From: Candidatus Iainarchaeum sp.
GTDB taxonomy: Archaea; Micrarchaeota; Micrarchaeia; Anstonellales; Bilamarchaeaceae
Assembly (NCBI GenBank): GCA_028714535.1
Contig: JAQTME010000001.1
Coordinates: 69,955 to 133,954 of the forward strand
Direction: 5' to 3'
DNA: 64,000 nt
This document shows positions 1,202 to 40,268 of the stretch, piece after piece. A program made the position numbers and the translations under genes. Below the pieces are notes generated by a model, which saw only the letters and a program-made list of their open reading frames with translations, had not been told where the DNA came from and searched no databases. Each line of letters starts with the position of its first letter. Positions within the stretch are counted from its first letter, which is position 1.

Positions 1202-2135
1202 GCGCCAGGGCAGGCGGGCTGCCGGCGATCAGCAGGTTGAAATAGAGCAGGACCTTGCGGTGGAGCGCCACATAGGCCCGCCGTGTATATACCTCGTAGC
1301 CGTTCTCCTCTATCACGCGCAGGATTTCCCTGTAGAGCGTGAATGACATGAATATGACAGTGCGCGCCTCCTTGTGTATCGTGCGCAGCCCTTCCAGCGC
1401 CTCTTCATAGTATCTCCTCGCGCGTGCCACCTGGAATTTCAGGAACCGTATCAGGTTCTCGGTCTTGCGCAGCGACAGGATGTCCTCTATGGCCAGGCCG
1501 AACCTGGCGAGCTCGTCCTTCGGGAAATACACCCTTCCCATCCTCGCGTCCTCGCCGACGTCGCGCAGTATGTTGGTGAGCTGCATGGCGATGCCGAGCT
1601 TGATTGCGTGGCGCTTCGTCAGGTGCAGGTTATCAGCGCCAAAAATATACATCAGCATGATGCCGACCACAGATGCGACATGGTAGCAGTAGCGGCGGAG
1701 CTCTGCGAAAGTGCCGTATGCCTTCCTGGATATGTCCATGCTCACGCCCTTTATGAGCTGGAGCGGGTAGCGAAGCGGTATCGAGTATTTCTTCATTACA
1801 TGGACGAACGGCGCGAGTATGGGATCGTCGGAAAAGCCACTGTCGTACGCGGCGCGCAGGCGCTTCCGCCAGTCGCGCACGAGCATTTTCTGGAGGCGTG
1901 GGTTGCCCTCGTTGTTGTCAACCAGGTCGTCGGTCTGCCTGCAGAATGCATAAACAGCGTGGAAGGCGTTGCGGCTCTCCTGCCCCATGAAGCGTGAGGC
2001 GAAGTAGAATGTCTTCGAGCCCTTCTTGATGCTTTCTTCCGCGTACCTGAAGTCTATTTTCCCACCTGATGTTTTTTCCCAGGAAAGGTTTATATCGTCA
2101 TCTGCCGTTGATTGTGCATGGCATACGAGCTCCAT
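1185..2135 (-). CDS. squalene/phytoene synthase family (head-to-head isoprenoid synthase)
   Basis: SKTFYFASRF…AFCRQTDDLVD and YCYHVASVVG…NILRDVGED match the two Asp-rich regions of the trans-IPPS head-to-head family. The longer ORF (to 2441) has an implausible N-terminal extension; start is probably ATG at 2135 (MELVCHAQ…). Confidence 0.7.
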   Translation of the reverse strand: MELVCHAQSTADDDINLSWEKTSGGKIDFRYAEESIKKGSKTFYFASRFMGQESRNAFHAVYAFCRQTDDLVDNNEGNPRLQKMLVRDWRKRLRAAYDSGFSDDPILAPFVHVMKKYSIPLRYPLQLIKGVSMDISRKAYGTFAELRRYCYHVASVVGIMLMYIFGADNLHLTKRHAIKLGIAMQLTNILRDVGEDARMGRVYFPKDELARFGLAIEDILSLRKTENLIRFLKFQVARARRYYEEALEGLRTIHKEARTVIFMSFTLYREILRVIEENGYEVYTRRAYVALHRKVLLYFNLLIAGSPPALAPTPAA

Positions 2136-2150
2136 CTGGCCCTGGTTGTG

Positions 2151-2609
2151 ATGTTGTTCCTGGCTGCGCTGCCAGTGGCTTTCGCGGATGTCGGGCCTTC
2201 GCCCCAGCCCCCCAGCGTGGTCATCCACCTCGTCAAAAATAACATGCCGGTCACCACGGTCAGTGAGATAACGTATAATTGCCTTGGGAGCACTGACGAG
2301 AACGTGAGCAACGCTGTTGCCCCGGTGCCGATAAAGCTGGCGTGCACGGCCGGGACATGCACCAACGAAAACGGCTGGTATTACAAGTTCAGCCCCTGCT
2401 TCGGCTTCCCGGGCGGCTACATCTCCTATGACCTGGGGCATGGGAAAATCAGGACCGGCGATTTCACCTACAATGAAAGCTACCAGAAATATGAGATGAC
2501 GATAGATGCTGAAAGCGGCAACATAACCAGCAGGAGCGGCTCCAGCATCCCCTCGTGCCTGCCTGCGTTCCTGCTGCTTCTGGTGCCAATCCTGCTGCGG
2601 CGTGGTTGA
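2151..2609 (+). CDS. secreted protein with N-glyc sequons and a C-terminal Cys + hydrophobic + RR sorting signal
   Basis: Signal-peptide-like N-terminus (MLFLAALPVAFA if the start is 2151; an ATG at 2112 is also possible). Sequons NES and NIT. C-terminus …PSCLPAFLLLLVPILLRRG*. Confidence 0.5.
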   Translation: MLFLAALPVAFADVGPSPQPPSVVIHLVKNNMPVTTVSEITYNCLGSTDENVSNAVAPVPIKLACTAGTCTNENGWYYKFSPCFGFPGGYISYDLGHGKIRTGDFTYNESYQKYEMTIDAESGNITSRSGSSIPSCLPAFLLLLVPILLRRG

Positions 2610-2983: not shown

Positions 2984-3718
2984 ATGGCCCAGCCCGCTGT
3001 CCAGGTCAATGAGCTCACAAAGATAATAGACGACCGGATAGTGGTGGACAGGATATCGTTCTCGGTGGAGGAGGGCGAGCTGTTCGGCCTGCTGGGCGCC
3101 AACGGCAGCGGCAAGACCACAACGTTCAACATGCTCGCCGGCCTGCTGTCGCCGTCTTCCGGCACGGTGACGCTCCTGGGGAAAAGCATAAAGGAGATGC
3201 AGAAGAGCAAAAGGCCGGAGATAGGCTTCGTAACCCAGGAGGACTCGTTCTATGAGACGCTCACTGTGGAGGAGAACCTGAAGTTCTTCGCGGACATGTT
3301 CGGCATGCCGGGCGTGGAGAGCGATGCGGCGATACGCAAGCTCCTGAAGCAGATGAGGCTCACGGAGAAGGCAGACACCATGGCCTCGCGCCTGTCCGGA
3401 GGCATGAAGAAGCGGCTGAACATGGCGTGCGCCATAGTCCACGACCCGAAGATAATATTCCTGGACGAGCCCACGGTCGGCCTCGACCCGGTAGTGCGCA
3501 AGGAGATATGGGCCCTCATAGAGTCGCTCCATTCCGAGGGCAAGACGATAATCATAACGTCGCACTACATGGACGAGGTCGAGCGGCTGTGCCACCGCGT
3601 CGCGATCATGTACTCCGCGAGGCTGGTGGCCAGCGGAACGCCCGCAGAGCTGAAGACGAAGTACAAGCTCAAGCAGATGGAGGATGTTTTCGCCGAAGTG
3701 GCGAAGCCGGTGTCCTGA
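2984..3718 (+). CDS. ABC transporter ATP-binding protein (ABC-2/DrrA-like)
   Basis: Walker A GANGSGKTT, signature LSGGMKKRL and Walker B IIFLDEPTVGLD. Its stop overlaps the ATG of the next gene (ATGA). Confidence 0.85.
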   Translation: MAQPAVQVNELTKIIDDRIVVDRISFSVEEGELFGLLGANGSGKTTTFNMLAGLLSPSSGTVTLLGKSIKEMQKSKRPEIGFVTQEDSFYETLTVEENLKFFADMFGMPGVESDAAIRKLLKQMRLTEKADTMASRLSGGMKKRLNMACAIVHDPKIIFLDEPTVGLDPVVRKEIWALIESLHSEGKTIIITSHYMDEVERLCHRVAIMYSARLVASGTPAELKTKYKLKQMEDVFAEVAKPVS

Positions 3719-11757: not shown

Positions 11758-11979
11758 ATGAAAATCGACTTGAATGACGTGGTGCACGTGCAGGAGACAG
11801 CCCTTACCATAAGGGGGTCCAGGAGGCGGACGACCGTGCCTGGCGAAATCGTGAGGTTCCTGAAGCTCAAGGACGGCGAGCGCATACGCTGGGCGCTCCT
11901 CAGGAACGGCACGCTCATAGTTTCTGTCGCCACGGAAGCGCGTGGCAGGCACAGCACCAGGAAACAGGCAAAAGCATGA
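11758..11979 (+). CDS. AbrB/MazE/SpoVT-type swapped-hairpin DNA-binding protein
   Basis: 73 aa. …RTTVPGEIVRFLKLKDGERI… resembles the swapped-hairpin fold. Its stop overlaps the start of the substrate-binding-protein gene. Confidence 0.45.
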   Translation: MKIDLNDVVHVQETALTIRGSRRRTTVPGEIVRFLKLKDGERIRWALLRNGTLIVSVATEARGRHSTRKQAKA

Positions 11980-13022
11980 ATGCCGCCAGCACGCTGATTG
12001 CCTGCCTCGCCTGCTTCGCGCTTCTCATGGGCTGCATATTCCTGCAGTTCCAGGGAAGCGGCGGCCAGACAGGGAAGGAAGAGGTGAGGATAGGGTATTT
12101 CCCGAACATGCTCCACGGCCAGGCACTGGTGGGCTGCGCCAATGGCGCGTTCCAGGAGGCATTCGGCCCCAACGTGACGGTGAGGATGGTGCCGTTCAAT
12201 GCCGGGCCCTCGGCCATAGAGGCGCTTTTCGCCGGCGAGCTGGACCTGGCCTACATCGGCCCAAACCCGGCCATCAACGGCTATGTGAAATCAGGCGGGG
12301 ACGCGCTCTGCATAATCGCAGGAGGGGCGAGCGGCGGGGCCGTGCTCGTGGTGCGCAATGATTCCGGCATCAGCAGCGACGCTGATTTCGCAGGCAAGAC
12401 ACTCGCCAGCCCACAGCTCGGCAACACCCAGGACGTTGCGCTGCGCAGCTACATACAGAACGCGGGCCTGAAGATAGGCGAGGGCCCTGGCGGAGTGAGG
12501 GTCATCCCCACCGCCAACCCGGACATCCTGCTCCTCTTCCAAAAAAAGGAGATAGACGGAGCGTGGGTTCCGGAGCCATGGGGGGCACGCCTGGTGCAGG
12601 AGGGTGGCGGCAGGATTTACATTGACGAGCGGGAACTGTGGCCGGACGGAAAGTTCGTAACGGCGAACGTGATCGCGAGCAAGGAGTTCATGGGCAGGCA
12701 TCCGGACCTGGTGAAGCGGTTCCTTGAGGCCCACGTGGAGCTCACCAGGTGGATAAACGGCCACCCTGAGGAGGCAAAGGCGCTGATAAACGGGCAGATA
12801 AGGAACATCACGTCCAAGGCACTCGCGCCGGAAGAGATGGACGCCGCCTTCTCGCGGTGCGATATGACCTATGACCCTGTGAAAAGCTCGCTGGCCAAAT
12901 CCGCTGACGACGCCTACGCGCTCGGCTTCCTCGGCGCTGAGAAGCCGGACCTTTCCGGGATCTACAGCCTTTCCCTGCTTAACGAGGTGCTGCGGGAAAA
13001 GGGCCTGGAGGAGATAGGATGA
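11976..13022 (+). CDS. ABC transporter substrate-binding lipoprotein, NMT1/THI5 (SsuA/TauA/ThiY-like) family
   Basis: Lipobox (LLMGC) then a periplasmic-binding-protein type 2 fold resembling NMT1/THI5. First gene of an SBP-ATPase-permease set with 4-bp overlaps. Confidence 0.7.
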   Translation: MNAASTLIACLACFALLMGCIFLQFQGSGGQTGKEEVRIGYFPNMLHGQALVGCANGAFQEAFGPNVTVRMVPFNAGPSAIEALFAGELDLAYIGPNPAINGYVKSGGDALCIIAGGASGGAVLVVRNDSGISSDADFAGKTLASPQLGNTQDVALRSYIQNAGLKIGEGPGGVRVIPTANPDILLLFQKKEIDGAWVPEPWGARLVQEGGGRIYIDERELWPDGKFVTANVIASKEFMGRHPDLVKRFLEAHVELTRWINGHPEEAKALINGQIRNITSKALAPEEMDAAFSRCDMTYDPVKSSLAKSADDAYALGFLGAEKPDLSGIYSLSLLNEVLREKGLEEIG

Positions 13023-14630: not shown

Positions 14631-15836
14631 GTGAAACTGAATCCGGGAGAGCTCAAGCTGGACCTTTACTGCAACGGGATGCAGCTGGACCGGAGCTGCG
14701 CGATTGACGAGGACGGATGCGGGATTCTCAGTACGCGCGGCGGGCTTGGCAGCGGGCTGGAACTGATTTTGCCCGGGGGCGTGCACGCCAACGTGCCCGT
14801 AACCGAAGAGTTCGCAAAAAAATCGCCCTATGTGCTGCACAAGGAGGCTGGCGGATACGTGGTAAGGAAGGGCGGCGTGGCTGTCTGCGGGGTCGCGCTT
14901 CTTCCACGCCCTGCGTTCTACGACAGGAAAACCGCCACGGGCAAGCCCATGGGCCGCATCGGCATCCTCCAGGGAACCTATCTGGGCATTTATCCGGCAG
15001 GGCTCTGCGATTTCTGGGGGATGGGGCCGCGCATGAACTGCAGGTTCTGCTCGGTGGGACTGAACCTTGGCGCGAACGAGGAGGCTGGCAAGACCGTCAT
15101 GGACGTGGTGGAAACCGCGCTGGCTGCGCGGGATGAATGCGGCGTCACCTTCGTCCATTTCAACTCGGGCTTTTGCAGGAACGGCGATGAGCTGGGCAAG
15201 CTGGAGCCCTACATAAAGGCCATAAAGGAGAAGACCGGCCTTCTGGTCGGGGTGCAGGCGATACCGTCCGCAGACCTGTCGGCCTATGACCGGCTGAAGA
15301 AGATGGGCGTGGACCACGTCTCATTCTGCATGGAACTTTTCGGGCCCGCGGAATTCAGGAAGACCTGCCCCGGCAAGGCGAAATACCTGGGGCAGGAACG
15401 ATTCCTGAAAGCCATCGGATACTGCACAAGGATTTTCGGCAAAGGAAAGGTGGCCGGGGAAGTGATTGCCGGCCTTGAGAGCCCTGGCAACACCATAAGG
15501 GCCATAGAAACATTCGCGAAGATGGGCGCGGTGGCCACTGTGTGCGTGTTCAGGCCATGCAAGGGAACTGATTATCAAGACCTGCCGCCTCCGGCGTACG
15601 AAGACATGGTCCCTGTTTTCAGGCGCGTTTACACAGCATGCCTGGACTATGGCATCCCGTTCGGCATCGCACCGAACATAAAGGTGAGCATAGTGATGCT
15701 CCCTGAAGAATGCGCCTGCCTTGTCCCGGAGATTACGCTCGGGCAAAGGCTCCAGCTGGCGAAACTCCAAGCCATGAAATTCGCCTTCCAGGCATATTTC
15801 AGGGCAGTCCTCGCCCTCAAATCAGGTAAGCTGTGA
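14631..15836 (+). CDS. radical-SAM-like TIM-barrel protein with a non-canonical Cys cluster (Cx10CxxC)
   Basis: Cys cluster CDFWGMGPRMNCRFC followed by Gly-rich (HFNSGF) and barrel-like segments. Start is GTG at 14631 or ATG at 14679. The ORF-track N-terminal extension (from 13782) overlaps the permease and is rejected. Confidence 0.4.
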   Translation: MKLNPGELKLDLYCNGMQLDRSCAIDEDGCGILSTRGGLGSGLELILPGGVHANVPVTEEFAKKSPYVLHKEAGGYVVRKGGVAVCGVALLPRPAFYDRKTATGKPMGRIGILQGTYLGIYPAGLCDFWGMGPRMNCRFCSVGLNLGANEEAGKTVMDVVETALAARDECGVTFVHFNSGFCRNGDELGKLEPYIKAIKEKTGLLVGVQAIPSADLSAYDRLKKMGVDHVSFCMELFGPAEFRKTCPGKAKYLGQERFLKAIGYCTRIFGKGKVAGEVIAGLESPGNTIRAIETFAKMGAVATVCVFRPCKGTDYQDLPPPAYEDMVPVFRRVYTACLDYGIPFGIAPNIKVSIVMLPEECACLVPEITLGQRLQLAKLQAMKFAFQAYFRAVLALKSGKL

Positions 15837-16695
15837 CTATCCCCAGGTGCGCGGCGGCCATCAGCAGGTACATGTGCAGCCAGGACGGGTGGTTTTCCCC
15901 GGATGCCAGGCGCTTTGGGTCCCGGATTATGGTATGCGCGATATACGCCCCCCATAGCGAGAGGAGGGAAAGGAACGCCACTGCCGGAGGAAGGATGCCT
16001 GCCGCCGCCCCCCAGGCGAAAAGCAGGAACGGGAGCGTGAGGAACGGCGCCATTATCCAGGCGGCCGTCCGTACGCCGTAGATTATCGGGAGCGTCCTGG
16101 CGCCGTAGCGCCTGTCCCCTTCCATGTCGGCGAAATCCTTGGTGCTCGCCGCGCCCAGAAGGAAAATGCCGAGTATGGACCCCATAAGCCACGGGGCTGG
16201 CGAGAGGGGGGTTGCGAAAACAGACCAGCCTGCCACCAGCAGCAGGAGGCCGCGTGGGAGCGCGATGGCCGCATTGGCGATCCATCCATGGTTTTTCAGG
16301 CGCACGGCCGGCCAGGAATAAAGTATCGTGAGGAGCGCGGCGGTTCCGGCGAGCAGCATGAAGGCCGTGCCAACCATGGCTGCGAAAATGAGGGCGACCG
16401 CATAGGCCGCCGCGGCGAGCGTGGTGGCTTCGCCGGCTGTTGCCCTTCCCGATGGCAGCGGACGAGTTGGCTTGTTTATCTTATCCAATTTCACATCGCA
16501 CGCTTGGTTGAATGAGTTGGACGCCCCGTTGAGGAGCATTGCGCTTGCTGAAGCGAGGGCGAGCGCAGGTATTGCCCCGGCGTTTAATACGATGCCATTT
16601 GCAACGGCCGAGGCGATGGCCCCTGAGAGAATGCCGGTCGCTGGCGGAAGGAGGGTGGGGAGCCTGAAAAGTTCGATGAGTTCGTATGGTTTCAC
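15817..16695 (-). CDS. UbiA family prenyltransferase (DGGGP-synthase-like)
   Basis: 292 aa, polytopic. NQACDVKLDKIN matches Nx3Dx3D. A second Asp-rich motif (DFADMEGD) is present. Confidence 0.8.
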   Translation of the reverse strand: MKPYELIELFRLPTLLPPATGILSGAIASAVANGIVLNAGAIPALALASASAMLLNGASNSFNQACDVKLDKINKPTRPLPSGRATAGEATTLAAAAYAVALIFAAMVGTAFMLLAGTAALLTILYSWPAVRLKNHGWIANAAIALPRGLLLLVAGWSVFATPLSPAPWLMGSILGIFLLGAASTKDFADMEGDRRYGARTLPIIYGVRTAAWIMAPFLTLPFLLFAWGAAAGILPPAVAFLSLLSLWGAYIAHTIIRDPKRLASGENHPSWLHMYLLMAAAHLGIVTAYLI

Positions 16696-20438: not shown

Positions 20439-20477
20439 ATTGCTTGTTTTTTAATTCTTCCATCCCCAGTGTAAACC

Positions 20478-20933
20478 ATGTCCAAGATGTTTGCGGTTAT
20501 CCTGGTTTTGGCGCTTGTGTCGTTAGCATTCTCAATGAGCTGCGCGGCGGACGCATACAGAAAAGCGTGCGCCTCCTGCCCGTTCGATGAGAACGGCAAG
20601 ACTGACAAGTCGTGCTCCGGCGGCTACCAGGCATCAGGAACTGCATGCATCAGCGCGGCCTACCCGATAATGGCAGGCAAATACGCCAGCGGGGAATGCC
20701 CTGCCGTGGATGCGTGCGCCAGCGAATTATCTTCGTGCGTCGCCCAGTATTCCAGCGGCAATGACAGGGCAGACTGCCAGGAAGGCTCGGTGGCCATCTG
20801 CTATGCTGCCGCGGACCAGTGCACCCAGCAGGCCGCGGTCAAGTGCGGCGAGATAGAGAACCCGTGCAAGGCACCGTCGTTCATAATGCTGCTGCTACTG
20901 GCAGGGGCCGCATTTTACAGCAGGAAAAAATGA
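20478..20933 (+). CDS. small Cys-rich secreted protein with a C-terminal Cys + hydrophobic + RKK sorting signal
   Basis: Signal peptide MSKMFAVILVLALVSLAFS, about 17 Cys, C-terminus …NPCKAPSFIMLLLLAGAAFYSRKK*. A TATA-like TTTTTTAATTC lies about 25 nt upstream. Confidence 0.55.
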   Translation: MSKMFAVILVLALVSLAFSMSCAADAYRKACASCPFDENGKTDKSCSGGYQASGTACISAAYPIMAGKYASGECPAVDACASELSSCVAQYSSGNDRADCQEGSVAICYAAADQCTQQAAVKCGEIENPCKAPSFIMLLLLAGAAFYSRKK

Positions 20934-31021: not shown

Positions 31022-31294
31022 CTACCTTCTGCTTCTCACGAATGCAACGCCGCCAAGCACAGCCAGCAGCAACGCGCTAGGGCCGCAGCAGCTGAGCGTC
31101 CCGCCCGCAATCTGCTCGCATGTCTGCGAACAGGTTGAATAATCGCTTGAGCTGGAAGCGCCTGAGCAGTAGCCGTCGCTCCAGGCCCCTCCATACTGCT
31201 CGCAGCACCCCATTTGGCACTGGGTGCGTACGTCCCCACTGGCTGCGAACGCCGATGAAGCCAGCAAAACCAGAAACAAAATATGCGTTTTCAT
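31022..31294 (-). CDS. small Cys-rich secreted protein with a CGP-CTERM-like sorting signal
   Basis: Signal peptide MKTHILFLVLLASSAFA, 8 Cys, C-terminus …SCCGPSALLLAVLGGVAFVRSRR*. Confidence 0.6.
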   Translation of the reverse strand: MKTHILFLVLLASSAFAASGDVRTQCQMGCCEQYGGAWSDGYCSGASSSSDYSTCSQTCEQIAGGTLSCCGPSALLLAVLGGVAFVRSRR

Positions 31295-31337
31295 GGCCCT
31301 ATCTATCCTTAAAGAATTTTAAATGCTCAGGTAGCCA

Positions 31338-31676
31338 TTACCTTCTGCTTCTCACGAATGCAACGCCGCCGAGCACAGTCAGCAGCAATGCGGCCGCGCC
31401 GCAACATGACGCACCCGTGCCGAAGCTGGCGCCGCCCTCGTTCGCGATGCATTGCTGGTAAGCATCTGAGCAGGGCAGGCACGCGCTTATACATGCCTGG
31501 TCCGGGTTGTCCGCTGTCCCGGCATTGCATACAAGTTCGCCATTGGCATCCGTGCCAAGCGTCGAGCCGCACGTGTAGCAGCAGTTTGTTATGCACTGTT
31601 CGTAATCGCTGTTGCACGACGCATAGGCCAGCGGCGAAGCCAACAGGGCAGCCAAAACAATGAATAGCGTCTTCAT
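31338..31676 (-). CDS. small Cys-rich secreted protein with a CGP-CTERM-like sorting signal (tandem paralog)
   Basis: Signal peptide MKTLFIVLAALLASPLAYA, about 14 Cys, C-terminus …SCCGAAALLLTVLGGVAFVRSRR*. The last ~50 nt are near-identical to the 3' end of 31022-31294. Confidence 0.6.
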   Translation of the reverse strand: MKTLFIVLAALLASPLAYASCNSDYEQCITNCCYTCGSTLGTDANGELVCNAGTADNPDQACISACLPCSDAYQQCIANEGGASFGTGASCCGAAALLLTVLGGVAFVRSRR

Positions 31677-31726
31677 AACGGCACCTCGGTTCTGCACCTG
31701 CCTTCTGCGCTGCGGTTTATATTTTT

Positions 31727-32702: not shown

Positions 32703-33836
32703 ATGAGCATTTCCTTACGGAACCCTGTTTTGATGCTGGCAGCCGCATTTCTCATATTTTCTATGGCTGGATGCGCCTCTCCATCCGGGCCTTCCGACTG
32801 CCCTCCTGCATGCGCCGCACCGGCGATAGGCCTGCATGTCCAGGAGCCGCCGGCATATTCGCTGCTCGGCGGCAAGCCAGTGCTGTTCTATGAGCTTTAC
32901 ATTTCCAACTACAATCCGCCCGGCCTATACCGTGTGGAAGTCCTTGAAAACGGCCCCGGCGGCCGCGTGTTGAAAACTATCGAGGGCGACGAACTGAACA
33001 AGACCCTGCGCGCGCCGCAAAAAGGGGTTTCTGACTACGTGGCCTTCATGTGGGTGGACCTTGGTGCCAACACAACCCCTGCATCAATCTACCATAAGCT
33101 TTACACCAACAGATCCGGCAACATTGAAATCACCGGAGGCGCAACAGATGTGAAATACGCGGCCCCCGTCATAATCTCCCCTCCGGTAAAAGGCGACGGC
33201 TGGGTGGCTGCCGAAGCGCCGTCCAATTACAACCATCATCGCATTGCGGTCGTCACCCTGCAAGGTACCCCCAGGGTGCCCGAAAGATACGCCATCGACT
33301 GGGTAAGATACGGTCCGAACGGCAAGATATACAAGACAGACGGAAAGGCCAATGAGGATTATTATGCCTACGGGGTTGACATACTTTCGGTTGCAGACGG
33401 TACGGTCGTGGACGCCAAAGACGGCATACCCGATGACCTGCCCGGGACCAAACCCCCCATGACCGTTGCCTGGGCAGGAGGCAACTATGTCATGGTGGAT
33501 ATTGGCAACGACTCATACGCCTTCTATGCGCATATGATCCCTGGAAGCGTGAAAGTGAAGATTGGTGACAGGGTAAAAACCGGCGATGCCCTGGGCAGGC
33601 TGGGCAATTCAGGCAACTCTGACCTGCCGCACCTGCACTTCCACGTCGATACAGGAAAGGATGCGTTGTTCTCAGACGGGCTTCCCTATGTCTTCCCGTC
33701 ATATCTCCAACAGGGCGAGGCGAAGGACTGGGGGGAGCGCCTGGAAGCTGACGCATCCTGGGCAGGATGGCTTCAGGTGCCCGCGGAGCGGGTCATGACC
33801 ATGCCGATAAACGGCGATGTGGTGAGCCTGCCATGA
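32703..33836 (+). CDS. secreted lipoprotein peptidase, M23 (LytM) family
   Basis: Lipobox (SMAGC). HxxxD-like region and C-terminal HLHFHV of M23 metallopeptidases. Confidence 0.65.
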   Translation: MSISLRNPVLMLAAAFLIFSMAGCASPSGPSDCPPACAAPAIGLHVQEPPAYSLLGGKPVLFYELYISNYNPPGLYRVEVLENGPGGRVLKTIEGDELNKTLRAPQKGVSDYVAFMWVDLGANTTPASIYHKLYTNRSGNIEITGGATDVKYAAPVIISPPVKGDGWVAAEAPSNYNHHRIAVVTLQGTPRVPERYAIDWVRYGPNGKIYKTDGKANEDYYAYGVDILSVADGTVVDAKDGIPDDLPGTKPPMTVAWAGGNYVMVDIGNDSYAFYAHMIPGSVKVKIGDRVKTGDALGRLGNSGNSDLPHLHFHVDTGKDALFSDGLPYVFPSYLQQGEAKDWGERLEADASWAGWLQVPAERVMTMPINGDVVSLP

Positions 33837-33921: not shown

Positions 33922-35019
33922 ATGAACCTACGTCTTCTCGGCCTCCTGGGCCTTGCGCTTCTTCTCACCACCGGTTGTATCTATCCCCATCCCCTTCCCG
34001 GTCCGCCCGCGAATGGCACCGGCATTGCAGGGCCGAATACCACAAACGCACCGATGGACAACACAGCCCCCTCCATTCCATATAAGAATTACACCGAGAG
34101 CGCCCTGTCATTCTACACGTTCACAGAACCCAACGAAGGCGCGTTCAGCCTTGAAGTGCCAGAGGGCTGGGTTGTGACCCCCGGCTCAGGTCTCGTGAGG
34201 CCTTACATAGACGCGGCCGTGGCGTTCGAGGCGAAATCGCCTTCAGGGCAGGGCGTCTTCATCCAGGACCCGTACGTGCCCATATACGCCACGCCGAACC
34301 AGCTGCTGGACTTCGCCGGCTTCACCGAGGGCTCCCAATACGACCCCTCAGGCGGGATCGCGCAACCGATGGTGGTGCAACGCTATGCAGACGCGCCATC
34401 GTTCGCCTCAGGCCTGCTCAGCGCGAGCGGCATCACTGCCTCCAATGTAGCGGTGGTGGAGCGGCCGGACCTCCTCCAGGCCGGAAACCCGCTGGTTTCC
34501 CAGCAGTCAGCTGCCGAGCTGTCATTCGACTACAATGCAGGCGGGCAGAAGATGCGGGCCGTGCTTCTCGTCAGGACAGTGCTGATCGAACTTTCCGGCA
34601 CAGGGGTATGGTACGCATCGGTCATGGAATACTACTCTCCGGAGGAGCTGATGAACGAGACCGAGCTTCTCGCTCTCCACATGCAGAAATCCTTCAGAGT
34701 GGACCCGGCCTGGGCTGCCCGCGAGCAGGCAGAGGTGCGCAAGCGTTCCCAAATCCTCTCCCAGAGCCAGAGCGACATAAGCGAAATCATCTCCTCTACG
34801 TTCGAGATGCGGAGCAGGACCATGGACGACCTGAACCGGAAGTGGGACAACTACATACTGGGCGTGGAGGACGTCTACGGTCCTGCTACAGGCGAGCACT
34901 ACGTAGTTGACAGCGGCTCAAATTACTACTGGGCTGATGCACACGGAAACGTATATGGCACGGACACCGCAGATAATCCCTTCCCGCTGGAAAACCTGCA
35001 GCTGCTGACCAGAAAATAG
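33922..35019 (+). CDS. secreted lipoprotein, hypothetical
   Basis: Lipobox (LLTTGC), Pro/Asn/Thr-rich linker with sequons. No recognised domain. Confidence 0.45.
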   Translation: MNLRLLGLLGLALLLTTGCIYPHPLPGPPANGTGIAGPNTTNAPMDNTAPSIPYKNYTESALSFYTFTEPNEGAFSLEVPEGWVVTPGSGLVRPYIDAAVAFEAKSPSGQGVFIQDPYVPIYATPNQLLDFAGFTEGSQYDPSGGIAQPMVVQRYADAPSFASGLLSASGITASNVAVVERPDLLQAGNPLVSQQSAAELSFDYNAGGQKMRAVLLVRTVLIELSGTGVWYASVMEYYSPEELMNETELLALHMQKSFRVDPAWAAREQAEVRKRSQILSQSQSDISEIISSTFEMRSRTMDDLNRKWDNYILGVEDVYGPATGEHYVVDSGSNYYWADAHGNVYGTDTADNPFPLENLQLLTRK

Positions 35020-36993: not shown

Positions 36994-37626
36994 TTATTTT
37001 CTCCGGATTATGACCAATGCGCCCGCTAGCACTGCCAAGATGGCCGCCGATGACTTGCACCCGGCATTGCCGCCCTCATTTTCCGCCTCAGGGTTCAGCT
37101 GCACGCATCCTATTTCGTCTGCCTCAGGGTCGCCGAATTTGCACACCATATCTGCCGGGCATGCGCAGTCGAGCTTGCTGTCGACGCAGTTCTCGCCCTT
37201 CACATAATCGCATATCTCGTCGTTCACAGCATAACCCTGGACGCACCGCAGCCCTAAAGTGTCGCACCCATGTGCGCATACCTCTCTCTGGACGTACTTG
37301 CACTTCCCATCTGCCGGGTCACAAGTGCCAATGGAAAATGCGCCGTTCTGACATTTGTTGGCGCATACCACCCCAGTGCACTTGTCCTCGGTCTGTGGAT
37401 TGTAAGGCTTGGCAGGGCAGTAGCAGATGCATGCCTTTCCCTGCGGGCACTCGCAAGCGACATGGCCGAGCCCGGGCCTGTCCGGCCCTGTCGGGCAGTT
37501 CGTGGTGCAGGGTTCGCCACTTACCCCGCCGCAAAGAAAGCACGAGGTATCGCTGGGGTCGCACCCACCAGCCATGACGAATCCAAACGAGATCAACAGG
37601 ACAATGACCGTTATCCAAGGCCTCAT
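36994..37626 (-). CDS. Cys-rich (EGF/knottin-like) secreted protein with a C-terminal Cys + hydrophobic + RRK sorting signal
   Basis: Signal peptide MRPWITVIVLLISFGFVMA, 30+ Cys in CxxC / C-x-C patterns, C-terminus …NAGCKSSAAILAVLAGALVIIRRK*. Confidence 0.55.
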   Translation of the reverse strand: MRPWITVIVLLISFGFVMAGGCDPSDTSCFLCGGVSGEPCTTNCPTGPDRPGLGHVACECPQGKACICYCPAKPYNPQTEDKCTGVVCANKCQNGAFSIGTCDPADGKCKYVQREVCAHGCDTLGLRCVQGYAVNDEICDYVKGENCVDSKLDCACPADMVCKFGDPEADEIGCVQLNPEAENEGGNAGCKSSAAILAVLAGALVIIRRK

Positions 37627-37845
37627 GGTAATGTCCCTCCAGTTTCTCATTTAAGGCTTTGCATAACGAGCCGAAGGCGAACCGAAGCCCTGCCAATGCT
37701 GGTTTTCATATACCAGACCGCACGTTAGCGAGGTTTTGTAGGGGGGTTGCGCTCATCATGCCGGGATTTGCAGGGTGTTCTCCAACTGCAGCGCCGGGCG
37801 AACAGCTTATCAACCGAGCGAAAGGCATAAATACTTTATGTTAGT

Positions 37846-37887: not shown

Positions 37888-38307
37888 ATGGAGAAACAAC
37901 TCAATCTTTTCATAAGGGTTTTTGTCCTGGCGTTGATTATTGCCGCTGGTTCCCTGTTTTTCACGTTTCCGGGGAAATCAATTTGGCTACTGGCTTCAGT
38001 TGCCATCGCCATGGCGGTTGCACTCGTTGCCCTTGTTGCCGCTTCTGAAAGAGTTACTTCGATGAAAACCGGTTTGCCGCTGGAGGACGAACTCTCCAGA
38101 AAAGCCACCTGGAAAGCAGGGTATTATGCGTTTGTCACTGGCTTATGGCTTGCAATTGGGATAATGGCAGCCAACCTGATTGGTGGGGAAATATTCAAGC
38201 TTCCAGACATTGATTTCAGATACGCATTTGAGGCAATGCTTGTAGTGCCTGGGCTCACCTTCGTTGTTCTTGCGATGTTGTTTAAGAAAAAAGGAAATGT
38301 GGACTAG
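37888..38307 (+). CDS. small 4-TM membrane protein (DUF2178-like partner of XRE regulators)
   Basis: 139 aa, four hydrophobic helices. Stop abuts the start of the XRE gene. Confidence 0.45.
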   Translation: MEKQLNLFIRVFVLALIIAAGSLFFTFPGKSIWLLASVAIAMAVALVALVAASERVTSMKTGLPLEDELSRKATWKAGYYAFVTGLWLAIGIMAANLIGGEIFKLPDIDFRYAFEAMLVVPGLTFVVLAMLFKKKGNVD

Positions 38308-38511
38308 GTGTTCGGTTTGAGGACGAGAATCAAGGAACTGAGGGACAGGTTCCACCTTACGCAGGAAGACCTGGCAAAGAAAGTCGGCGTGCGCAGGGAA
38401 ACAATCGTCCTCATAGAAAAGGGCGACTATAACTGCTCCATAATGCTAGCCCATGCACTGGCAAAAGAACTGAAAACAACAATCGACAAGCTGTTCATCT
38501 GGGAAGATTGA
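38308..38511 (+). CDS. XRE-family (Cro/C1-type HTH) transcriptional regulator
   Basis: 67 aa. [23 protein letters not shown] is a canonical HTH_3 motif. GTG start. Confidence 0.75.
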
Positions 38512-38726: not shown

Positions 38727-40268
38727 ATGCTCCAGCTAATCAACCACATATTCGTCGCCCTGCTCATGCTTGCCGCGGCAGCAGGCGTATCCCTGACCCT
38801 GCTCATCCTCCTGGTGCCGGCCCTGTTGGAAAACAACGAACTGGGCGGCGAGGAAAGGCCCGACTTCGTTCTCGGCGGCGGCAATTTCATGATTGCGGCT
38901 GATGATTCCCCTTCCGAGGTCAATTTCACCATCCGTACCCCAAGGCTTGGCGAGGGCGACCTTCTCAACCTTGAAATATACGAGAACGGCCTCCAGGTGG
39001 CGTCTGCGGACTGCCTCAATGACGATGAGCAGAACTACACCGGGGCGACCGATATCACATGCGCGGCCGGCCTTCCATACGCCTATGTTGACTGGAGCAC
39101 CTACCAGGTCGTCGCAATCCTCACCGCAGGAGGAAAAGATTACACCTCAGGGCCTGCCGACGTGACTGTGGATTGGTCGGCCTACGAGGCCGGTTTCTGG
39201 GGCATGGAGGGCGTCCTCCTGCTGCTCGTGGCCGCAGTATACGCCATCGTGGTCCTGCCAGTGCTGCTGTTCATCTTCTGGACCGTTTCAGGCATGAAAC
39301 ACGCAGGTGCAGAGCCTGGCGAATATTCCCTGCGCTCGCTCATCTTCCTAAACGGGCAAACGCTGCTGCAAAAATTCCATGCCTTCCTCACATCGCCGTA
39401 TTTCTGGGCCTTTGAATTCATAGGCGTCATCCTGATAGTCTGCTATCTAGTCCTCAGCCAGGAAATCTGGAAGTCAGGGACCGCCTTCGTCGCCTTTGTC
39501 ATATCCGGCCTCATCTCGTTCATAGTCCCTTTCCTGTGGTGCTGTGCCTGGTGGTACGCCGACTACCGTGAACGAGAGCCCATGCGGATAATGGTGACGT
39601 TTTTCCTGTGGGGCATGCTCGCGGCCCTGATGGCCATAGGCATAAACACTGTTTTCGGGGTGTTGTTCGGGCTCATCGGCGTGGGGTTCCTCGGCTCGTT
39701 CTTCATCGCGCCCCCGGTGGAGGAGTTCTATAAGGCCTCCGGGCTCGGCCTTCTCGCCGAACATAAGGAGTACAATTCCATAGAGGACGGCATCCTGTTC
39801 GGCTTCACAATCGGCATGGGGTTCTCCTTCATAGAGAACTGGATATACCTGCTTGACAATCCCATGGGCTCTGATGTGGGCGCATGGCTCGCGATCTTCT
39901 TCATGCGATGCATCCTGTTCTCTGCCAACCATGGCTTTTTCACAGCCATCACCGGCGCCACAATAGGCTGGCTCATAGAGCGCAGGTTCGCAGCCCCGGC
40001 CCTCGGCCTGCTTCTCGGCGCGCCAGTGGCGGCCCTGTTCCATGCGATGCACAATTCAGGCGAGATGCTGGCCGCGCTCCTTGGAGGTGGCGGCCTGCTC
40101 ATCTACTGCTGCCTGTTCATGCCGTTTTTCGACTATGGCGGCCTGCTGCTGGTGGCGGCGTTCTTCATCCGCTCAGTGCTGCGCCAGAAAGGGACGGCCC
40201 GCAAAACGGCCAGGGCACCTGCCAAAAAACAGGGTATTAATTCGGTTCGATTCAATATTTTACGATGA
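38727..40268 (+). CDS. PrsW-family intramembrane protease with an N-terminal extracytoplasmic domain
   Basis: 513 aa. N-terminal TM, a roughly 130-aa external domain, then a multi-TM core with EExxK (VEEFYK), FxxxH (HGFF) and HxxHN (HAMHN) motifs of PrsW/CAAX-like proteases. Confidence 0.65.
   Translation: MLQLINHIFVALLMLAAAAGVSLTLLILLVPALLENNELGGEERPDFVLGGGNFMIAADDSPSEVNFTIRTPRLGEGDLLNLEIYENGLQVASADCLNDDEQNYTGATDITCAAGLPYAYVDWSTYQVVAILTAGGKDYTSGPADVTVDWSAYEAGFWGMEGVLLLLVAAVYAIVVLPVLLFIFWTVSGMKHAGAEPGEYSLRSLIFLNGQTLLQKFHAFLTSPYFWAFEFIGVILIVCYLVLSQEIWKSGTAFVAFVISGLISFIVPFLWCCAWWYADYREREPMRIMVTFFLWGMLAALMAIGINTVFGVLFGLIGVGFLGSFFIAPPVEEFYKASGLGLLAEHKEYNSIEDGILFGFTIGMGFSFIENWIYLLDNPMGSDVGAWLAIFFMRCILFSANHGFFTAITGATIGWLIERRFAAPALGLLLGAPVAALFHAMHNSGEMLAALLGGGGLLIYCCLFMPFFDYGGLLLVAAFFIRSVLRQKGTARKTARAPAKKQGINSVRFNILR

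Follow-up and report, generated by a model that had tools for sequence, protein, structure and literature searches.

A modular cysteine-containing C-terminal tail on secreted proteins of Micrarchaeota, a candidate surface sorting signal

Secreted proteins of a DPANN archaeon share a short C-terminal tail in which cysteine, small residues, a brief hydrophobic segment and a basic end follow one another. The tail was studied in a stretch of 64,000 nucleotides (nt) from a Candidatus Iainarchaeum sp. (contig JAQTME010000001.1; the window, meaning the whole of this stretch), where it is borne by five predicted proteins and defines the commonest class of exported protein, and in related DNA of Micrarchaeota, where it recurs on carriers that are otherwise unrelated. 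The tail is best read, with slightly better than even confidence, as a variant, specific to this lineage, of the tripartite sorting signals that contain Cys, such as CGP-CTERM and MYXO-CTERM, and it probably marks proteins for lipid anchoring at the cell surface. A tripartite, Cys-containing, signal-like module at the C-terminus of proteins in an archaeon outside the Thermococcales had been proposed from the letters of the window (hereafter the sequence-only reading), and that proposal is supported here. Attachment to host archaea is the way of life of DPANN archaea such as Micrarchaeota, and very little is known of how their surface is constructed. A conserved and easily recognised C-terminal tag would define a surface proteome and, with it, a list of candidate host-interaction molecules.

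The tail and its carriers

All five window proteins end in one or two Cys, small residues, ~15 uncharged residues and Arg/Lys. Two of the genes lie in tandem on the reverse strand. Gene A (31022..31294, -) encodes a 90-amino-acid (aa) secreted Cys-rich protein with 8 Cys, the tail of which is CCGPSALLLAVLGGVAFVRSRR (31022-31090, with the stop codon); it has orthologues in protein P0119 and in metagenome loci L056 (1497-1769) and L058, and falls in a large Cys-rich superfamily (BLAST single linkage). Gene B (31338..31676, -), 43 nt upstream of A, encodes a 112-aa secreted Cys-rich protein with 12 Cys and the tail CCGAAALLLTVLGGVAFVRSRR (encoded at 31338-31406), and its product is 100% identical to the annotated NCBI protein P0001. 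A regular-expression scan of stop-to-stop open reading frames (ORFs) gave three further tails, at 2112-2609 (+), 20475-20933 (+) and 36994-37650 (-), and otherwise only three obviously spurious ORFs. Tail protein 1 (2118..2609, +; ~163 aa, 5 Cys) has the single-Cys tail CLPAFLLLLVPILLRRG (2556-2609), matched no Pfam or NCBIfam family and has a mature domain unrelated to those of the other carriers (BLAST). Tail protein 4 (20478..20933, +; 151 aa, 13 Cys) ends in CKAPSFIMLLLLAGAAFYSRKK at 20865-20933. Tail protein 5 (36994..37626, -; 210 aa, 25 Cys) begins with a lipobox-like N-terminus (VMAGGC) and ends in CKSSAAILAVLAGALVIIRRK, encoded at 36994-37059; its orthologue in Micrarchaeota locus L002 (1323-1958), at 79% identity, keeps the Cys tail.

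These are the five ORFs for which the sequence-only reading had quoted tails, and all are present where it had placed them. It had also assigned N-terminal signal peptides, and all five N-termini indeed resemble Sec signal peptides, for example MKTHILFLVLLASSAFA/AS and MKTLFIVLAALLASPLAYA/SC, as assessed by eye from the n-region, the hydrophobic core and an AxA-like or lipobox-like end. Its description of most carriers as very Cys-rich applies to four of them (8.6-11.9% Cys) and not to 2118-2609, at only 3%. Four of the five carriers in the window are mutually unrelated by BLAST. Frame-specific codon statistics indicate that ORFs 2118-2609, 20478-20933 and 36994-37626 are coding in their own frame, with 0.69-0.75 G+C at third codon positions. 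The composition of A and B is atypical, and they are taken as real genes because orthologous ORFs are conserved in other assemblies. The long ORF antisense to 2112-2441 belongs to a squalene/phytoene synthase and is over-extended, the domain beginning only at residue 138, so there is no true overlap with tail gene 1. The next base after the stop of tail gene 1 starts an ORF (2610-2933, +) for a predicted small membrane protein of 107 aa, which has good coding statistics; neither Pfam nor NCBIfam matched it, and the fetched loci hold no homologue.

Relatives of these genes were gathered by three routes. A B-family profile, run with HMMER against 1.84 billion representative proteins, gave 16 relatives; the profile spanned the whole B protein, so this route recovered the B family and not all tail bearers. 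GTDB genomes were scanned with an aligned set of a PrsW-like protein, encoded at 38727-40268 and described below; this yielded 40 loci from Micrarchaeota (599 kb) and 13 from outside DPANN (238 kb), with ±10 kb around that one gene examined in the relatives. A search with a tail profile returned a single match, P0004, and missed the seed proteins themselves. A narrower B-family alignment led to 3 metagenome loci. Tails from the window, the 40 Micrarchaeota loci and the metagenomes make up a catalogue of 36.

The consensus of the 36 tails is [G/S]n-C-C-G-[S/P]-x-hydrophobic-K/R, with a hydrophobic run of ~13 residues. The tail Cys, preceded by G/S-rich positions, is often doubled and sometimes tripled, the residue before the last Cys being itself Cys in 28 of the 36; the residue after it is Gly in 23, and Ser or Pro comes next in 25. 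The stretch between the last Cys and the C-terminus is nearly fixed in length, at 18.8 ± 1.4 residues (range 16-22), and the first bulky hydrophobic residue stands at a median of 4 positions past the Cys. Directly after the Cys, and abutting the helix, stands G, S or P, an arrangement noted for signals that membrane-embedded enzymes cut (Haft, bioRxiv 10.1101/2023.06.07.544157).

This conserved motif is modular. At least seven groups of mature domain, mutually unrelated by BLAST, carry it. All 16 representative-level relatives of B keep a (C)C-[G/A/S/I] tail, and in this family ten Cys of the ectodomain, and likewise the Cys of the tail, never vary, and the linker between ectodomain and tail varies from 0 to ~60 aa, mostly of G/S/T/N. 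At the other extreme stand four precursors of 62-65 aa (P0004, encoded in L062 at 3074-3262; P0125; L027 8175-8372, -; L023 7002-7190, -), which consist of a signal peptide, ~20 D/Y/G-rich residues, a CCCG tail and little else. P0004, a Micrarchaeota protein of 62 aa, ends in GGCCCGSGAILAVLGGVAFLKKKN. The motif Cys are the only Cys in three of these four proteins, and the fourth has two more within its signal peptide. If processed, such tiny acidic Tyr/Gly-rich precursors would give lipopeptides of ~20 residues.

In the DNA sampled the motif also follows lineage. Genes that combine a Cys tail with a signal peptide number 12 in 10 of the 40 Micrarchaeota loci, beside the 5 of the window, and an ORF scan of the 238 kb of non-DPANN loci found none. 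The pattern exceeds chance. In a scan that ignored Cys and selected on signal peptide, C-terminal helix and basic end alone, Cys abuts the helix in ~12 of ~16 believable proteins in the window and the Micrarchaeota loci, compared with 0 of 3 C-terminally anchored secreted proteins in the non-DPANN controls. Tail genes are scattered among housekeeping genes, and no dedicated operon with a protease was found at the loci examined.

It could be argued that Cys stands near the helix by chance, in proteins that are 8-12% Cys; at ~10% Cys, the probability of finding one within 3-4 residues of a given point is ~0.3. However, low-Cys carriers share the motif (2118-2609, and a protein of locus L041 with 3.5% Cys), most of the tiny precursors have no other Cys, G-[S/P] follows the Cys in fixed register, and the Cys is doubled in more than three quarters of the tails. 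Together with the modularity of the tail and its unrelated carriers, these observations rule out Cys-rich composition as the origin of the tail. That explanation is effectively refuted, and next to no weight is left to it.

A more serious rival holds that the tails are plain, retained C-terminal transmembrane (TM) anchors, in which the Cys pair serves another end, for example an intermolecular disulfide, metal binding or the structural capping of ectodomains rich in disulfides, with no cleavage or lipid transfer. A helix with a positive-inside stub suffices as a tail anchor, the carriers are Cys-rich in any case, and no dedicated enzyme is demonstrably linked to the tail. In addition, a membrane-anchored 126-aa CPHC protein (thioredoxin/DsbA-like) is encoded near a tiny CCCG-tail gene in L062 (277-657, +); it is consistent with extracytoplasmic disulfide formation for a Cys-rich secretome and suggests that such chemistry is active. 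On the other hand, the hydrophobic segment of the tail is short, with ~13-15 uncharged residues, whereas two large proteins of the same loci have ordinary C-terminal helices of ~22 residues without Cys. C-C-G-[S/P] and the Cys-to-end distance are kept across unrelated carriers and hypervariable linkers, the precursors of 62-65 aa, which are nearly tail only, would anchor nothing, and the architecture equals that of the experimentally processed MYXO-CTERM. Altogether, a modular signal is a better fit to the evidence than a plain anchor, which nevertheless retains a substantial minority share of our confidence.

The two large proteins are of interest in themselves. They are secreted proteins of 852 and 1255 aa (L012 11535-14093, -, and L027 14390-18157, -) with a common tail of GID[P/W], a helix of ~22 residues and basic residues, and without Cys; this tail may be a further C-terminal signal that serves large surface or S-layer-like proteins. 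The gene of one of them adjoins the PrsW-like gene, and the other lies ~0.9 kb from a gene for a CPBP protease.

Tandem genes A and B

Genes A and B, distant paralogues, fall in a single Cys-rich superfamily. Their bodies are not alignable as DNA, only 18 of 67 aligned protein residues are identical (27%), and a BLASTP comparison of the two mature parts yields E = 0.02, whereas the tails have 20 of 23 residues in common. The near-identity of the tandem 3' ends beside differing bodies, which had been pointed out from the sequence, is real: the last 54 nt of A (31023..31076, -) match those of B (~31339-31392) at 50 of 54 positions, and the 30 nt that encode GGVAFVRSRR are identical. Where the two tails have the same amino acid, the codon is identical at 16 of 20 positions, compared with 8.5 expected from the codon usage of the window (P ~2.5e-4); in the bodies the figure is 12 of 17, against 9.9 expected, which is no excess. 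As the excess is confined to the tail, the likeness lies at the DNA level and does not merely reflect selection on the peptide. This shows that the tail-coding ends of A and B were homogenised by gene conversion, one of the two explanations the sequence-only reading had offered.

Comparison with relatives is in keeping with this. At the variable position of GG[V/A]AF, A and B of the window both use GTT and the two paralogues of L056 both use GCT, as concerted evolution would predict. Across all 72 nt of the tail, orthologues are identical at 66 of 72 positions and paralogues at 60 of 72, so that any recent conversion tract must have been short, covering the last ~30-45 nt. The gene order metallophosphoesterase - B - A - phosphoenolpyruvate carboxykinase (PEPCK) is kept in three metagenome contigs (L056-L058). 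In L055 (GCA_964647575.1), a single gene at 2546-2884 joins an A-type CCGPS tail to a body of B type and directly adjoins PEPCK; either A was lost after an exchange of tails or the duplication is younger than the L055 lineage. A structure model of the B protein was too uncertain for a fold search (predicted local distance difference test, pLDDT, 63).

Labelled orthologues of a neighbouring gene of the window come nearly all from metagenome-assembled genomes (MAGs) of Micrarchaeota or Bilamarchaeaceae, and the source is therefore taken to be a DPANN archaeon. The remainder of the window, which has a G+C content of ~58%, is ordinary archaeal chromosome. Its housekeeping genes include those for eRF1, an aminoacyl-tRNA synthetase, ABC transporters, a UbiA prenyltransferase, thiolase and PEPCK, along with Rad50, PCNA, FtsZ, a CTP-synthase-like protein and others, and one tRNA-Val. 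Two isoprenoid-lipid enzymes, the squalene/phytoene synthase (1185-2030, -) and the UbiA-family prenyltransferase (15817-16695, -), are probably unrelated to the tails.

Candidate enzymes and a possible route to the surface

Comparative genomics has linked each of the four earlier Cys-containing tripartite signals to an Rce1-like glutamic intramembrane protease of the CPBP family, and for CGP-CTERM the predicted cognate enzyme is the CPBP protease MrtA, NF040590 (bioRxiv 10.1101/2023.06.07.544157). MrtX, a homologue of MrtA, was shown to cleave the MYXO-CTERM tail in a Cys-dependent manner, also in E. coli (PMC11980579). The statement of the sequence-only reading that the CGP-CTERM class has no experimentally established processing enzyme is therefore outdated.

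The only intramembrane protease found in the window is a PrsW-family protein of 513 aa (38727..40268, +), a glutamic-type enzyme and a putative candidate for processing the tails. The sequence-only reading, which had advised looking for an archaeosortase/exosortase-like or rhomboid-like gene, missed it; no archaeosortase or rhomboid gene was found in the window. The protein matches PF13367 at 120.3 bits (gathering threshold 23.5; 1e-34), and the PrsW motifs EExxK, FxxxE and HxxxN are present as VEEFYK, FSFIENW and FHAMHN and are invariant in the alignment. Against the equivalog model of B. subtilis PrsW it scores 46 bits, for a cutoff of 225. Full-length orthologues occur across Micrarchaeota at 38-86% identity. 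An AlphaFold model (pLDDT 79) shows an N-terminal TM helix, an immunoglobulin-like (Ig-like) beta-sandwich ectodomain and a helical core, the fold belonging to the Rce1/APH-1 superfamily. The gene lies 1.1 kb from tail gene 5, and in L002 only 251 bp separate the orthologues of the two.

PrsW of B. subtilis (Pfam PF13367) is the site-1 protease of the anti-sigma factor RsiW. The window protein differs from it in a conserved N-terminal extension of ~280 aa, which comprises the Ig-like ectodomain and extra helices, and in being archaeal; a role for it in sorting is hypothetical, and nothing on such a role of PrsW was found in the literature. We know of no anti-sigma system in archaea. Just upstream of the gene (37888-38511, +), a 139-aa protein with four TM helices is translationally coupled to a 67-aa XRE-type helix-turn-helix (HTH) protein; the former is syntenic in the closest relatives (L004, L005, L006, L007 and L009), and the two might form a membrane-tethered regulatory pair and serve PrsW as an alternative substrate. 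The stop of the PrsW-like gene overlaps the start of a gene for a Rad50-like ATPase (ATGA at 40265-40268), a compact, operon-like packing of unrelated functions. The last helix of the protease itself (40090-40268) has a nearly invariant Y-C-C before it and a basic stub after it (…LIYCCLFMPFFDYGG…RSVLRQKG), so that its C-terminus loosely resembles the CC, helix and basic layout of a substrate.

A true CPBP protease (PF02517, 64.5 bits) is encoded in the Micrarchaeia locus L027, alongside a gene with a CCCGP tail; its best matches are MmRce1-type models, far below their cutoffs. The link of both candidate proteases to the tails is one of co-occurrence in the lineage, and the DNA covered amounts to ~64 kb of the source genome and the stretches around one gene in its relatives. 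Both points leave room for another enzyme, with the tail a real sorting signal that is served by an archaeosortase-like, rhomboid or signal-peptide-peptidase type of protease or by a wholly new one. Nevertheless, all four known Cys-containing tripartite signals map to glutamic proteases of the Rce1 superfamily, one of them experimentally, and the tails have no PGF, PEF, VPXXXP or GlyGly-type signature and score far below the models of such signals, so that this possibility is considered improbable.

The window also holds hints of lipid attachment. Lipobox-like N-termini occur in a sulfonate/NMT1-type binding protein, an M23 peptidase and a protein of unknown function, encoded by ORFs 11976-13022 (…LLMGC), 32703-33836 (…FSMAGC) and 33922-35019 (…LLTTGC), and would indicate that the source organism makes lipoproteins with an N-terminal Cys. 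Lipoproteins and the lipidation factor AliA have been reported to be common in DPANN (PMC12462473). Taken together, the lipobox proteins and AliA in DPANN make a Cys-lipidating activity at the outer face plausible.

By analogy with MYXO-CTERM and MrtX and with CGP-CTERM and MrtA, the following route may be proposed. A carrier would be exported via Sec and retained by its short C-terminal helix; the juxtamembrane Cys at the outer face, often two or three, would be lipid-modified; a glutamic intramembrane protease of the Rce1 superfamily would then remove the helix and the basic stub, and the surface protein would be left lipid-anchored. The enzyme might be a CPBP/Rce1-like protease of the L027 type or the PrsW-like protease at 38727-40268. 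What the sequences show is the motif, how it is conserved, that it is modular and in which lineage it occurs; lipidation of the Cys, clipping of the helix and the identity of the enzyme we infer from this analogy. A bolder version, which we regard as unlikely, is that the Micrarchaeota-wide PrsW-family protease of ~500 aa, with its Ig-like ectodomain and Rce1/APH-1-fold core, is the cognate sorting enzyme of the CCG tail and the first PrsW-type 'sortase', making multiply lipidated, disulfide-rich surface proteins and very short lipopeptides that the episymbiotic cells could employ where they touch their hosts.

Several points weigh against a processed sorting signal. Processing, cleavage and lipidation lie beyond what can be read from sequence, no curated sorting-signal model (NCBIfam 20, Pfam) reaches its cutoff, and the window has no gene for a CPBP protease (PF02517), archaeosortase or rhomboid. 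The tendency of locus tail genes to lie near the PrsW-like gene (9 of 12 within 4 kb) is a weak, non-significant and partly syntenic trend, and the operon-like string that this gene forms with the four-TM protein and the HTH regulator would also fit a regulatory role. In three of the five window tails a lone Cys precedes K or L and not G, so that the five may not all belong to one system. The related DNA sampled comes to only ~0.66 Mb, and the calls of signal peptides rest on visual inspection.

If the proposed sorting signal is true, the link between Cys signals and proteases of the Rce1 superfamily would reach a third archaeal or bacterial setting, with a doubled-Cys motif. The precursors of 62-65 aa would offer very small natural substrates for tests of lipidation and intramembrane cleavage, and a dedicated hidden Markov model of the tail would rename many 'hypothetical proteins' in DPANN MAGs.

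Comparison with known C-terminal sorting signals

The CCG tail looks new relative to known signals, as no NCBIfam 20 or Pfam model recognises it and nothing on a C-terminal Cys signal in DPANN or Micrarchaeota was found in the searchable literature. The helix and Arg part of the window tails gave matches below cutoff to PVV-CTERM, LAVTG, NPXTG, GPS-CTERM, MYXO-CTERM and PGF-CTERM. The best score to MYXO-CTERM (TIGR03901) was 13.3 bits, for a cutoff of 20, and covered only the helix and Arg part; that to PGF-CTERM (TIGR04126) was 11.3 bits, for a cutoff of 24.5, in the absence of the PGF motif. PGF-CTERM, the signal of archaeosortase A (ArtA), is likewise an archaeal C-terminal tripartite signal, and it leads to C-terminal lipid anchoring of surface proteins; it differs in that its motif has no Cys, and the window encodes no archaeosortase.

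CGP-CTERM is the class to which the tails had been assigned from sequence alone. It is a signal of 20 aa with an invariant C-G-P, reported only from Thermococcales (Haft, bioRxiv 10.1101/2023.06.07.544157), and its carriers average 583 aa, the signal coming after a Thr/Ser-rich stretch (bioRxiv 10.1101/2023.06.07.544157). The likeness is real. Both signals are archaeal and tripartite, with a signature Cys that abuts the helix without a spacer, a basic C-terminal cluster, ~20 residues from Cys to end, Gly after the Cys, often Pro next, and frequently a low-complexity linker before the signal. A literal C-G-P is found in gene A and several relatives, and two tails of relatives, CCGPAFILLALAGFVLMKR and CCCGPALILFALMGLALKRGSG, align almost end to end with the CGP-CTERM model TIGR04288 (positions 2-19 of 20) at 18.2 and 14.8 bits.

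Membership nevertheless fails. The window proteins gave no TIGR04288 match, either whole or as isolated tails, at a threshold as lax as E <= 10 (NCBIfam release 20), and every hit among the relatives falls below its cutoff of 21 bits. C-G-P, invariant there, is present in 10 of the 36 catalogued tails and in one of the five in the window, that of gene A, while the doubled or tripled Cys usual here is not described there. The lineages differ, being DPANN here and Thermococcales there, the carriers here are small and disulfide-rich whereas those of CGP-CTERM are glycoproteins of ~583 aa, and among the membrane proteins scanned, from the window and the loci and so from less than a genome, none matched NF040590/MrtA; the sole CPBP protease found, in L027, scores best to MmRce1-type models. 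The assignment to CGP-CTERM was therefore rejected, given the lack of TIGR04288 matches in the window, the variable C-G-P, the other lineage and the other carriers, and true members of that class processed by an MrtA orthologue are held to be a shade more improbable still than a signal served by some other kind of enzyme.

MYXO-CTERM is bacterial (Myxococcota) and belongs to Gram-negative cells in which it depends on type II secretion, whereas the archaeon has a single membrane, and the MYXO-CTERM domain is longer, with a model of 34 positions. Like the tail described here, it has an invariant Cys with a frequent second one (GCGC there, CC here), followed by a helix and an Arg-rich stub, and it is found on many unrelated carriers per genome. 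Its Cys-dependent C-terminal cleavage provides a mechanistic template for the tail of Micrarchaeota.

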